A stretch of 64,000 bases of DNA from Piedraia hortae CBS 480.64 (taxonomy: Eukaryota): contig MU005960.1 of assembly GCA_010093745.1 (NCBI GenBank), positions 248,636-312,635 of the forward strand, given 5' to 3'. This document shows positions 33,898 through 37,847 of the stretch, piece by piece. The translations under genes and the position numbers were made by a program. A model generated the notes under the pieces. The model was not told the origin of the DNA. It saw only the letters and a list, made by a program, of their open reading frames with translations, and searched no databases. Position 1 is the stretch's first letter, and each line of letters begins with the position of its first letter.

Positions 33898-34593
33898 GTC
33901 AGGCCTTGAACATATTCCCCCCGCGCTGCCCCCTCTCTCGGCCTGGGACTCTTGCTGCGTTCCGCCTCGTGGTGATTTCCGGGGACCGGATGGAGAATGT
34001 GACAGGGAGCGTGGACCGGCCCGATGCGCGAGGGGCAGAGGCACTCGATGATGTCAACTTTGTCAGTCGAGGGCGCCAATTTGACACTATAAAGTGTCAA
34101 TGACGAGCTTCAAGTGAAGCAGATTGTTGAGATTTTGCAGCAGCCCGCCGTCCCGCGTGATGGATGCAGTAGACGAAGCTGCTCCATGTTGGTTGTTGGC
34201 CGTTGATTAACGCCGCTTCCGCGGCCAATCACTAGTCCGCAAGCGACTAAGCGTGCTGCTGTAGGCCAATCACGCCGCTTCCCCTACAATTGTGAATCAA
34301 TCTACTGGACAAAACAAATACAAACCTCTCTTGCGGGTTTGATTGGGTCACGAGCGGCTGGAGGCTGATTGAGCAAGGCAGATCTCGGGTAATCAAACGC
34401 CTTTGAATGAGTCAGCCTGCGCGTCGAGACTGACGAGGCTTGGCTGACAATTGATCAAATTTTGAATGACAATTGAACAAATTGTCAGCCTGTGACAAAC
34501 GGCGAGGTGGCGTTTGCAGCAGCCGACCGCCTTCTTCAGGAACAGGCCAACCATTGGTTAGGTTAATGTACAAAAACAAACTACATCTTACAC

Positions 34594-35577
34594 TCATCTC
34601 CTCTTCCCTTTCCTTCGCCTATCTTCATCATAGCCAATTGTTGCATTTGGCGGTGCGCCGTTGGTACGCCGCGGTGGATAAGCGACGTTGCCTGATTCTT
34701 TCAGCTTATCCCGGGCTTCATGGCTGCGGCTTAGAGGCGAAGATCGGGGAGTCCGTCGCGAGGTTTGAGGCAGCGTCTCTTCCGATTCAAATCGGCCCGG
34801 CAGGCTGTACAGCCGGTTGTAGGATTCGGCTCGACGACGTCGTGTGCGCCGCTCGGCCTCATCCATTGACGCACGCCGGTGGCTTGACGGCCGAGACCGG
34901 CCATGTTCCGACGATATAGATTGCTTACGGCTATGTTTCGAGTATGACCTTGACGAATGCCTGCTTCCCGACCGATTGCGTTCTGCGTAGTCAATAAACG
35001 AAGCAACAGTGGGCACCCCAACGGGCCCCGACATTAGTAACCCCGAGCCTGCGCCGGATCCTGAACGATGCGACGGAATCGGCTCTGTGACGCTTCTCCT
35101 CTCGGTCCGTGGCCTAGGGCTAGACTTTGTAGGTGATCCCAGCCACAAGCTGCTCAGATAGGATGACAACCGGCTCTTCTTTTGGCTTGAAAAGTTTGTG
35201 GAGCTGCTTGATCGACTGCTTGTTTTTCGTGGAGTCTGTGGAGTAACAGATGAAGGGGCGGGCGCAACGGCCTTTGGTTTCTGGACACGCCTGCGTGCCA
35301 GAAGTTCCATTTCGACCGTTGTTAGTTTGACATGAGTTTGGCCACGTAATCGTGCTGCCGAAATTTTGTCCAGCGCGGCCTGTACCAGCGCTTCCTCGCC
35401 CGCGAGGCTTTTGTAGGGATATCCATCTTTAAGAGTATCAGAGTAAACGCCGTCGTTCCAATCGTAGACTTTTTCATTTCGGGGCCCCCTGGTATTACCA
35501 TACACAAACGCATTATTGACGGGGGCCCCGGGTGGTCTTCCCGTGGCATAGGGCGAAGCGAGTGCGCGGCCGACCAA
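34594..35577 (-). CDS. YIP3-associated extension ORF (recoding-dependent long form)
   Basis: 327 codons starting 1 nt after the YIP3 stop. No ATG before the motif EEALVQAALDKISAARLRGQTHVKLTTVEMELLARRR, recalled from proteins encoded downstream of PRA1 in filamentous ascomycetes. Confidence 0.7.
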   Translation of the reverse strand: MVGRALASPYATGRPPGAPVNNAFVYGNTRGPRNEKVYDWNDGVYSDTLKDGYPYKSLAGEEALVQAALDKISAARLRGQTHVKLTTVEMELLARRRVQKPKAVAPAPSSVTPQTPRKTSSRSSSSTNFSSQKKSRLSSYLSSLWLGSPTKSSPRPRTERRSVTEPIPSHRSGSGAGSGLLMSGPVGVPTVASFIDYAERNRSGSRHSSRSYSKHSRKQSISSEHGRSRPSSHRRASMDEAERRTRRRRAESYNRLYSLPGRFESEETLPQTSRRTPRSSPLSRSHEARDKLKESGNVAYPPRRTNGAPPNATIGYDEDRRRKGKRR

Positions 35578-35578
35578 C

Positions 35579-36103
35579 CTAGACCGCCTCGTCGGAGAAA
35601 GAGGCCGCGGCGTCTTTCTCCAGAAGTGACGCGTGGCCGAGCACCGTCACGCCACTGGCGCCAATCAGCCACAGAACCGTTGAAATTGGTGAGGCCCAGA
35701 TGCCCAGAGGCACAGCAATCACTAGCAGAGTCGTGTAAAGCTGGGACGAGCTCGCTCGTGCGAATCCAACATCTAGGTCGCGTCCCTGGAGTTTAGAGAT
35801 GCCAAACATGCCGCCGACTACAAACACAATGACAAAGAGCAGTAGCAGATTCGTGAGGAGGCTGTAGATGCTGAGCATGACGAAGACGACGGCATAGTTG
35901 CTGCTGAAGTACGAGAGATTGTAGTTGACACGGCTCTGCACTTCGCCAAAATCGCGCGGCTTCGAGACGGCGCGGACATTGAGGAACTCCGATATGGGCC
36001 GCAGGTTGGCAAAGCGGTTCATCCACCCCTGCGAGCGGACGCTCTCCAGACGGCCCTGGAGGTTCAGACGGCTGGCGATTGCGTCGAGCGGGACGTTGGC
36101 CAT
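35579..36103 (-). CDS. YIP3: Prenylated Rab acceptor / Rab-GDI displacement factor (PRA1 family)
   Basis: NLRPISEFL, RVNYNLSYFSSNY, LIGASGVTVLGHA, C-terminal FSDEAV. Confidence 0.93.
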   Translation of the reverse strand: MANVPLDAIASRLNLQGRLESVRSQGWMNRFANLRPISEFLNVRAVSKPRDFGEVQSRVNYNLSYFSSNYAVVFVMLSIYSLLTNLLLLFVIVFVVGGMFGISKLQGRDLDVGFARASSSQLYTTLLVIAVPLGIWASPISTVLWLIGASGVTVLGHASLLEKDAAASFSDEAV

Positions 36104-36628
36104 GTTGTGCAGTTGAGCAGCTGTAAGTTAATTGAGTCCAGACGCTCCGGGCTTCTTACTTACTATATATGGTTACGTGACTGAGCGAGCGGTTGAGTGT
36201 GGTGGGAGTTTGAAATTTCGAGGGTGGAGGTTGGGACTACGGAGGCGCTAAACATTAGCGTCGCGCACAAAGGGCAAAGCCTTGGTGGTCCGACATGTGA
36301 AGACGTCCACACTGCCCTGCAAGCTGCAGCCTGCTGTGGCTTATGCTTGGCTACCTAAGCTGGGTCTTCACTGGTTGGTCTGTTGGTATTTGCGTGTCGT
36401 GGTTGGTTGTACATTAAACAGGTTATCAATGGTTCTACGCTAGTAGCTTCTATATTTTGGCCTAGAGGCCGCTATAACTAATTCCATCGAGGCTGAAAGA
36501 ACCCCCTGGGCTCTTGCCTCGACTGTGTGAGTTTCTCGTTGCGGTGGGGCGGGAACGCCCGCAACGCCAAATCCGGATGACAGACGACTGACAGGGCGGC
36601 GGCGAGACGTCCAGCAGCCATCACCACC

Positions 36629-37847
36629 ATGAAGTCGAAGCTTCTACTGCTCCTGGCCTGCCTGGTGGCCTTCGTGGCCGCATGGGGCAAAGAAGACTAC
36701 GAAATCTTCCGATTGAGAGACGAAGTGCGGGCGCACGAAGGGGAGAATGTGACATTTTATGACTTCCTCGGCATCAAGATCGACGCAACGCAGGAAAAGC
36801 TGAACAAGGCGTACCGCAGACTATCGCGGTCGCTGCACCCAGACAAGGCACGCAGCCAATGGTTGGCCGGGTACAGCGACAAGGTAACGGCGAACAGCAA
36901 GGCGCAGAAGAAACCGCGGAAGCCCACCCAGGGCGAGATCAACCGTTTCAATAAAGAGGCATCTGCCCGTTTTGAGCGGCTGAGTCTCGTGGCCAACATT
37001 CTGCGTGGCCCCGGACGCGAGCGCTATGATCACTTCCTGAAGAACGGCTTTCCGGCCTGGCGCGGCACCGGCTACTACTACGAGCGCTATCGTCCAGGCC
37101 TTGGCTCGGTGCTGATTGGACTCTTTATTGCTCTGGGCGGCGGTGCCCACTATGCCGCTCTGCGTCTACAATGGACAAGACGGCGCGAGTTCGTTCAACG
37201 GTATATCCAGCAAGCCCGCCGCTCCGCTTGGGGCGATGGCGGAGTTGCTGCCGGCATTCTGGACCATGCAGAGCACCAAGACAGCCAACCGGCACCTGAT
37301 CAAGGCATTCAGTGGAACCGACGGCAGAAGCGTATGATGGAAAAAGAGAAGAACAAGAAAGACGGCCGCGGTTCTCGCGGCACATCGAGGACGGATCCCC
37401 GCGCAGCAACCAAGGCCCGCAACGAAGGCGTCAGCGCGCCGCAAGACGCAGCCATCACATCGGGCCCCGTTGGCGCCAAAAAGCGAACGGTGGCGGAGAA
37501 CGGCAAGGTGCTGGTGGTTGACAGCGTCGGCAACGTATACCTAGAGGAGGAAACGCCCGAGGGAGACCGTCACGAGTTCCTGCTTGATGTAAGTTGTCCG
37601 CAGCCCTTGCCCGACCGCGAACTGACAGTTGCAGCCGGACGAAGTGCCGCCGCCGTCCATTACCGATACCTTCCTGGTGCGGGCGCCGCTGTTCTTCTAC
37701 CGCCAGACCATTGGGCGACTGACAGGGAAGGCACCGGTCGAGCAGGAGGCCGAGGCCAAGGACGAGTCGGAGGCTGCCCTGAACTCTGCGCTCCCAATGA
37801 ATGCAAATGAAGAGGCGAGACGACGAAGGAAGAAACATAAAAGGTAG
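36629..37847 (+). CDS. ERJ5: ER membrane J-domain co-chaperone
   Basis: Signal peptide, WGKEDYEIFRLRDEV, TFYDFLGI, HPDK, GFPAWRGTGYYYERYRPG, TM helix. Intron 37589-37634 joins ORF 37629-37847. Confidence 0.88.

Follow-up and report, generated by a model that had tools for sequence, protein, structure and literature searches.

Our analysis concerns the YIP3 gene of the fungus Piedraia hortae CBS 480.64, which lies on the minus strand of a 64,000-nucleotide (nt) stretch of contig MU005960.1 (GenBank assembly GCA_010093745.1, positions 248,636 to 312,635). This whole stretch is what we call the window, and positions below count from its first letter. YIP3 consists here of two open reading frames (ORFs), a 5′ ORF for a PRA1/YIP3 protein and a 3′ extension in the +1 frame. 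We favour the reading that a minority of ribosomes pass from the first ORF to the second by pseudoknot-stimulated frameshifting at the sequence UUUCUCC, with a net slip of -2 as the likeliest event, and we put the probability of this reading at roughly 0.55. Judged by its layout, the locus is a YIP3/PRA1 two-ORF gene of the ‘+1’ subgroup already described for Capnodiales. What the window and its related loci add to that description appears modest: a retained pseudoknot, a re-pairing logic that points to -2, a pair of compensated insertions and mobile junction introns.

The short-form ORF (35579..36103) has 174 codons, from an ATG at 36103 to a TAG at 35581-35579, and its protein matches the PRA1 profile PF03208 over residues 30-168 (141.5 bits against a cut-off of 30.1, E 1.8e-41). 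It ends in GCC UCU UUC UCC GAC GAG GCG GUC UAG. This 3′ end contains U UUC UCC (35594..35600), the counterpart of U UUU UCC in Podospora, which encodes Phe169 and Ser170 and is separated from the stop by the four codons GAC GAG GCG GUC. An open stretch of 350 codons, counted stop to stop, extends from 35646 to 34594 in the +1 frame, and 327 of its codons follow the YIP3 stop (35577 to 34597). The earliest ATG in this frame is residue 90 of the 327, and the gene-caller protein P0003 (238 aa) corresponds to residues 90-327. On the same count the -1 frame has an open stretch of 156 codons (35792 to 35322), which continues for 85 codons beyond the YIP3 stop. The two-ORF arrangement known from Pezizomycotina is hence present: a homologous 3′ ORF that is out of frame with YIP3 and lacks an early ATG. 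The initial annotation of this DNA had placed the site at 35600-35594, four codons before the TAG, the end of the -1 frame at 35322 and a 327-codon extension without an early ATG in the +1 frame, and our frame scan bears out all of this. It had also argued that a single -1 shift could not reach the extension and that +1 or -2 recoding would be needed, a conclusion with which the frames, an RNA-derived contig and the related loci described below all agree.

Much of this arrangement has been described before. In Podospora anserina the YIP3 long form of 61.6 kDa is made through a -1 frameshift at U UUU UCC (codon 170), with a pseudoknot 2 nt 3′ of the site that has a conserved 3-nt bulge in stem 1, and the two-ORF arrangement has been conserved throughout Pezizomycotina (Malagnac et al. 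2013; PMC3777964). The passages of that paper on YIP3 also report a 5′ untranslated region (UTR) intron of 173 bp in P. anserina, and an extension in the +1 frame in Capnodiales (eight species) and Ophiostomatales (one species), for which a +1 frameshift is stated as a hypothesis. In Mycosphaerella graminicola UUUUU is replaced by UUUCU. The knot is called not conserved in Capnodiales, M. graminicola having no more than a small stem-loop. A -2 slip is not proposed in these passages, and among papers citing the title phrase of the 2013 paper we found, by title and abstract, no later work on the mechanism of the +1 YIP3 genes. The initial annotation cited only the -1 case of Podospora; the novelty that it implied finds no support, since the +1 configuration with UUUCU in Capnodiales is already in the same paper.

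The frame offset is a feature of both the DNA and its transcript. Two public sequencing runs from separate samples and studies, X1 and X2, cover the stretch. The X1 contig, from what may be the source of this DNA, is identical to the window over 34500-36300, and the X2 contig (2917 nt), from another sample of the same organism, has 0 differences and 0 gaps against 34551-36120. The bases at the junction, which the initial annotation had thought worth confirming, are therefore the same in both, with 0 other letters and 0 gaps. The X2 contig omits exactly 36121-36163 (CT..AC on the plus strand) and then resumes. The omitted 43 nt (GTAAGT..TTAAC..CAG), which lie 17 nt 5′ of the ATG, are a typical fungal intron in the 5′ UTR. 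Because this GT..AG intron is missing from the X2 contig, we take the contig to be RNA-derived; the label ‘RNA?’ is a guess on the record, so that the RNA origin hangs on the skipped intron. Both ORFs lie on one dominant RNA in this contig without splice, indel or base change between them, and since the contig is colinear with the DNA over both ORFs, sequencing error, RNA editing or dominant splicing is unlikely to be the cause of the frame offset. The contig runs about 1.2 kb further into a divergent neighbour and is no proof of a single molecule. A 77-nt intron suggested by the initial annotation (GTATGG..CTGAT..AAG, 35427..35503) is present as a motif, but the X2 contig crosses it without a gap, and the whole candidate is 3′ of the stop and would thus be unable to connect the ORFs.

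Related loci indicate that the +1 arrangement is old. A scan of metagenome contigs gave 374 pattern matches, of which 169 were confirmed, and the best 80 YIP3 loci were kept with their flanks; the frame of the extension was judged by the conserved GGAAGAYC (GRPP) codons. In 59 loci with the site UUUUUC followed by C, A or G these codons are in the -1 frame, and in two further loci with UUUUUCC the sequence ends before the motif. Seventeen loci have UUUCUCY and one (L015) has CUU UUU. Two of these 18 are too short (L003, L004), and all 16 assessable ones are +1. Five of them are intronless (L007, L010, L012, L013 and L015), with +1 ORFs of 472-486 codons past the stop where complete; the other 11 have a short GT/GC..AG intron beside the junction and are all +1 once it is removed. 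The last of the 80 loci, L054, ends before the shift site. The distance from site to GRPP is 60 nt in the -1 clade (63 or 66 in five loci) versus 56 or 59 nt in the +1 clade, and 59 nt in the window.

In a quick maximum-likelihood tree of the YIP3 DNA minus its last 45 nt, the window falls on the same side of one branch as the 18 loci; the Shimodaira-Hasegawa-like approximate likelihood ratio test (SH-aLRT) value of this branch is 97. L054 is inside this group, and one state change suffices; the end branch of the window is long (0.36), so its exact position in the tree is unsure. Because the related +1 loci and the window form one clade, the tree argues that the +1 arrangement is ancestral to that clade. 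This excludes the suggestion of the initial annotation that the extension was recently broken by an indel, given that 16 of 16 assessable relatives share the +1 frame. One locus of the clade, L007 (2372 nt), is 90-95% identical to its genomic relatives L005 and L006 but is without the 50-nt intron that follows the stop and without some 114 nt of the 5′ UTR, which implies a 5′ UTR intron of about that length in relatives. L007 resembles a spliced mRNA with YIP3 and a 473-codon +1 extension. Another, L010, has an extension 99.9% identical to that of L005 and a YIP3 part that is 85.7% identical to L005 but 96% to L008, and is probably an assembly chimera with its join at the conserved junction.

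The start of the extension is scrambled in the window (35559..35577) by two insertions that the window alone carries. Compared with L007 and 45 other aligned junctions, it has an extra T just after the stop (at 35577/35576; GTTGG vs GTGG) and an extra CG 17 nt further on (35560-35559). In our alignment of 47 distinct intronless junctions, from which nine intron-bearing loci, early-cut loci and duplicates were left out, no junction but that of the window fills columns 34 and 54-55, apart from a 3-nt insert of L013 in columns 32-34. Between the two insertions the ancestral WSAA(P/H)S falls in the -1 frame of the window, and afterwards SPYxTGRPPGA is in +1. As the two insertions, of 1 and 2 nt, add up to 3 nt, the +1 relation to YIP3 is restored and the similarity in the -1 frame is explained without a second shift: by this alignment, WSAAHS is a remnant of the compensated insertions. 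The compensation also hints weakly that ribosomes may already be in the +1 frame 4 nt past the stop, with the caveat that a sum that is a multiple of three is expected by chance one third of the time.

The extension protein itself is strongly diverged. It matches no family in Pfam. An exhaustive protein search of 1.84 billion representatives gave only 16 other proteins at E ≤ 1e-3 (best 1e-11), among them fused YIP3 models of Recurvomyces, Aureobasidium, Cladosporium and Elasticomyces, and a word-indexed search returned just the window’s own 238-aa call and one Elasticomyces partial protein. Conserved extension motifs are nevertheless found in the +1 ORF at its start (SPY.TGRPPGA), middle (EEALVQAAL...EMELLARRR) and end (RRRKGKRR). 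The best conserved of them, EEALVQAALDKISAARLRGQTHVKLTTVEMELLARRR (35287..35397), is 49% identical over 37 aa to the L007 extension (BLASTP, E 1e-8) and also occurs in the models of relatives. Because motifs are found at start, middle and end, we consider the +1 arrangement to be more than chance. The named best matches to the 174-aa YIP3, all proteins longer than YIP3, are from Vermiconidia calcicola (80%) and Meristemomyces frigidus (79% and 75%), and further matches to fused models come from Friedmanniomyces endolithicus (about 70%), Cryoendolithus, Polychaeton, Recurvomyces, Elasticomyces and Cladosporium. Vermiconidia is classed in Mycosphaerellales, the order of the nearest named proteins of the window’s YIP3. 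Mycosphaerellales were split off from an older, broader Capnodiales.

Two nt past the shift site starts an H-type pseudoknot (35531..35591). The 5′ arm of stem 1 (S1) is CGAG GCGGUC (35591-35582), loop 1 is UA (35581-35580), and the 5′ arm of stem 2 (S2) is GGU(U)GGUC (35579-35572). The 3′ arm of S1 follows as GGCCGC (35571-35566), a GCA bulge and CUCG (35562-35559), and after a loop 3 of 21 nt (35558-35538) the 3′ arm of S2, GACCACC (35537-35531), completes the structure. The UAG stop hence occupies loop 1 and the first base of S2. We scored S1 as alignment columns 15-24 with 40-57 (allowing the 3-nt bulge) and S2 as columns 27, 31 and 35-39 with 84-90. Over the 47 junctions pairing holds in 97.6% of 799 cells, and 8 of the 17 pairs have changed on both sides. 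Four of five measures were reached by 0 of 500 shuffles and the fifth by 3 of 500, and when the partner columns were slid by 1-3 pairing fell to 22-66.5%.

The knot is also found within the +1 clade. There the inner part of stem 1 (S1b) pairs 6/6 in all 8 distinct junction types, and compensated variants, with pairs assigned by eye, include GUA/UGC and, in S2, GGCGGUC/GACCGCC and GAUGGUC/GAUCAUC; S2 looks weakest in the L058 type. Pairing of the outer part (S1a) is under-reported in this comparison, which took the first candidate 3′ arm, and we rely on S1b and S2. In the window, a change of GAG to GAC together with the CG insertion turns the outer stem GGAG/CUCC into CGAG/CUCG. The fold of lowest energy for 35591-35559 is the S1 hairpin (-11.7 kcal/mol, with a z-score that is not significant). 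On this comparative support we conclude that the pseudoknot is retained in the window. Furthermore, GGUCGGCCGCG is kept in both clades though it is read in different frames (WSAA vs GRPR, by hand translation), and because it is conserved despite the different frames the constraint on it points to the RNA level.

How would the +1 frame be reached? In the reading that we favour, one unspliced mRNA region would bear the 174-codon YIP3 ORF and the extension. The majority of ribosomes would terminate at the UAG and yield the short form, and a minority would shift at U UUC UCC (35600-35594), aided by the pseudoknot 2 nt downstream. In a net -2 slip, tRNA-Ser(IGA) would come off UCC (35596-35594) and re-pair perfectly on UCU (35598-35596). 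The shifted ribosomes would then read CCG ACG AGG CGG UCU AGG... over the zero-frame stop. Counted from the proposed re-pairing codon to the TGA at 34596-34594, the extension frame spans 34594..35598, and the 333 codons read after the slip (35595-34597) would give a long form of about 503 aa (170 + 333). This reading predicts the junction peptide SFS-P-TRR.

That frameshifting occurs in the +1 clade at all, where it occurs, and that it is -2 and not +1, we infer from the following observations. In L001-L011 the +1 frame opens just 8 codons before the stop, an interval that includes UUUCUCU, so a shift in these loci would have to lie within ...GCA GCA UCU UUC UCU GAG GAA GCG GUC UAG. Since a downstream barrier needs a site 5′ of S1, UUUCUCY would be the site on which the knot can act. 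At UUUCUCC no tRNA can re-pair forward in +1. Backward, the letters are compatible with -2: UCC to UCU in the window and UCC or UCU to UCU in the 17 UUUCUCY loci, in each case with the knot 2 nt on. In L015 both peptide and bases have changed (CUU UUU), yet the codon beside the 2-nt spacer again re-pairs perfectly at -2 (UUU to UUU). We favour a net -2 slip because tRNA-Ser can re-pair on UCU at -2 and nowhere at +1, because the same holds in L015, and because the spacer is only 2 nt. For -2 frameshifting, optimal spacers are 1-2 nt shorter than for -1 (PMC3458567).

Several points weigh against this reading. All +1 loci belong to one clade, which makes the link between UUUCUCY and the +1 frame a single event in evolution. 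The -1 clade has the same spacer and pseudoknot, and the spacing hence gives no account of a switch from -1 to -2. A tandem -2 slip would also put the P-site tRNA-Phe on CUU, where 2/3 positions pair. Several loci of the +1 clade have an imperfect outer stem S1a, and folding z-scores are not significant for 35490-35610 (121 nt, +1.40), for the S1 hairpin (-0.62) or for the 61-nt knot region (+1.16), computed with ViennaRNA, which cannot score pseudoknots. The window’s extension is short and has diverged strongly. Rare variants are lost from contigs, so that a minor spliced isoform would go unseen. Finally, frameshifting in the +1 clade is a hypothesis in PMC3777964 too.

One could also argue for a forward +1 frameshift at or next to the stop, with GUC UAG G read as GUC-(U)-AGG and slow termination acting as the pause, as in antizyme or Ty3. 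The extension frame passes through the stop uninterrupted, UAG then G is retained in most loci of the +1 clade, and ‘+1’ is the published label of these clades. However, tRNA-Val on GUC, GUU or GUA finds no +1 re-pairing codon (UCU, UUU, UAU) of the antizyme type. The last codon and the stop also vary within the clade, with GUU UAA in L013 and GUA UAG in L014 and L015. Moreover, the UAG is inside the knot, in loop 1 and S2. Because the knot would already be open with UAG in the A site, a shift at the stop leaves its conservation in the +1 clade unexplained, and we regard this explanation as unlikely.

To the same degree we doubt that the extension is a separate protein, made from a non-AUG start or by reinitiation after the UAG and never fused to YIP3. 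A TTG, proposed as a start by the initial annotation, is indeed in frame just past the stop at 35577-35575, gene callers give a stand-alone 238-aa product from the first ATG, and a fusion in the +1 clade is a prediction from sequence. The TTG, however, is not conserved: it is made by the T insertion that only the window carries among the 47 aligned junctions, and relatives have TGG. An ATG start would leave out SPY.TGRPPGA and the helix motif, both of which are coded 5′ of the first ATG, and the P. anserina orthologue yields a fused protein (PMC3777964). In addition, the frame relation is constant in 16 of 16 assessable loci despite introns of 50-62 nt and the 1- and 2-nt insertions of the window, which counts against independent initiation, since that would not need a constant relation.

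It is considerably less probable that the extension is an unexpressed, decaying relic, with the scrambled WSAAHS as the onset of pseudogenization. The extension is about 150 codons shorter than those of relatives and very diverged, and two frame-disturbing insertions lie at its start. But these insertions offset each other, the motifs at start, middle and end are all retained, and the 350-codon ORF is still open, where neighbouring frames close within 156 codons or fewer. The pseudoknot is kept as well, with a G-C to C-G swap in S1a (CGAG/CUCG).

Nor do we give much weight to a minor, alternatively spliced mRNA that would join the ORFs in frame and make recoding unnecessary, an explanation marginally less probable still. 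Relatives do bear introns at three places within about 20 nt of the junction, L058, L062 and L065 are in one open frame when their 62-nt intron is retained, and rare isoforms are hidden in contigs. The window, however, has no junction intron, the RNA-derived contig is colinear from 36120 to 34551, the 77-nt candidate is entirely downstream of the stop and, by eye, no GT..AG pair in the window removes the stop and enters the extension frame. Least probable of all is a sequencing or assembly error, RNA editing, or a pair of successive -1 shifts as the initial annotation had considered: the -1 frame does continue for 85 codons past the stop without interruption, but two runs of different samples and studies, one of them RNA-derived, are identical base for base, and a second shift at G AAA AAG near 35470, although these letters are present, would bypass the conserved +1-frame motif SPY.TGRPPGA at a heptamer that is not of the form X XXY YYZ, in a -1 frame whose length past the stop varies from 3 to 139 codons in relatives.

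The junction introns of relatives are worth describing in their own right, since introns occupy three positions in one clade, all of them within about 20 nt of the junction. Eight loci (L001, L002, L003, L005, L006, L008, L009 and L011) have a 50-56-nt intron, GTGAGT..CTGAC/CTAAC..YAG, directly after the TAG. L014 (L014:3510-3580) has a 61-nt GC-AG intron (GCAAGT..CTAAT..CAG) before the last sense codon. In the Friedmanniomyces-like loci L058, L062 and L065 (e.g., L065:1560-1700) a 62-nt intron, GTACGA..GCTAAC..CAG, lies between UCU GA and A GAG GCG GUU UAA. When it is spliced, YIP3 ends in ...SFSEEAV and the extension is in +1; when it is retained, frame 0 is open from YIP3 into the extension (in L065, all 300 codons examined). 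Two public models, P0011 and P0006, treat this intron as coding. Retention could hence make a long form without frameshifting in these three loci.

Public annotations of Mycosphaerellales fuse the two YIP3 ORFs in several models (P0005, P0006, P0008, P0011, P0012, P0015, P0021, P0045 and P0089) with mutually inconsistent junction peptides; some models omit the GRPPGA region and some lose the YIP3 C-terminus. These models look like they carry invented introns that mask the frame change. A retained knot, a short shift window and re-pairing at -2 only would explain why the invented introns do not agree with each other.

Taken together, the observations allow a more far-reaching and distinctly tentative proposal, which we consider doubtful as a whole. 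Capnodiales-type YIP3 genes, including that of the window, may use a pseudoknot-stimulated -2 shift, with tRNA-Ser moving from UCC or UCU onto UCU and, in L015, tRNA-Phe moving on a U run. The change from -1 to -2 would have come about through one U-to-C change in the site and a net 1-nt (mod 3) change in loop 3, and nearby lineages would apparently be replacing the shift with retention of an in-frame open intron. If true, a C-terminal domain would be added in these genes by a -2 frameshift that is both cellular and conserved. YIP3 is among very few cellular genes other than retroelements thought to gain a domain by programmed frameshifting. The window adds no new kind of system to these. Together with the metagenome loci it does sharpen the +1 question, with the knot retained, a shift window of at most 8 codons in some members, and -2 as the only cognate re-pairing.

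Two observations on the public runs do not bear on the shift. Past 36300, to about 37500 on the plus strand, the X2 contig enters a divergently oriented ORF (36581-37810) with, by eye, a J-domain-like motif (...LHPDK...); the contig across YIP3 and this neighbour is probably two head-to-head transcripts fused by unstranded assembly. In run X1 a second record contains a diverged YIP3-like contig of 29.5 kb at a depth of 259.7 vs 12.3 for the window’s contig, which matches the window only at 35577-35601 (the pseudoknot region) and 35859-35935 (a conserved YIP3 stretch). Run X1 seems to hold another, more abundant fungus.

How does the window compare with known systems? Antizyme (UCC UGA U), Ty1 and Ty3 use +1 frameshifts. 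The window shares with them a net +1 change near a zero-frame stop. It differs in having no P-site codon that re-pairs at +1 and no identified rare ‘hungry’ codon, and in having its stop inside the stimulatory structure. In the arterivirus gene nsp2TF, -2 frameshifting occurs with a protein-bound C-rich motif as stimulator. The slip proposed here is like -2 frameshifting on the U6A heptamer in that two bases are slipped back onto a codon of the same tRNA and the stimulator is close (Lin, Gilbert and Brierley 2012; PMC3458567). Unlike the U6A and arterivirus cases, the window holds a cellular gene; the proposed site is UCUCC and not a U run, and the stimulator would be a pseudoknot in place of the arterivirus motif.

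The closest likeness is to YIP3 itself. As in PaYIP3 of P. anserina (Pa_1_8470; Malagnac et al. 2013), there is an orthologous PRA1/YIP3 5′ ORF and a homologous 3′ ORF, found only in Pezizomycotina, that lacks its own ATG. In both genes codons 169-170 form a U-rich site with four more codons between it and the stop, a pseudoknot with a 3-nt bulge in stem 1 starts 2 nt past the site, and an intron is present in the 5′ UTR but not between the ORFs. Unlike PaYIP3, the window’s site is UUUCUCC instead of UUUUUCC and its extension is in the +1 instead of the -1 frame. In this it resembles the YIP3 genes of Capnodiales (e.g., M. graminicola) and of Grosmannia clavigera, which also have a +1 extension, and it shares UUUCU with M. 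graminicola. In contrast to the published account of Capnodiales, as far as its passages on YIP3 go, the window and the related metagenome loci appear to keep both stems with compensatory changes, and in its retained knot the window resembles the case of G. clavigera.

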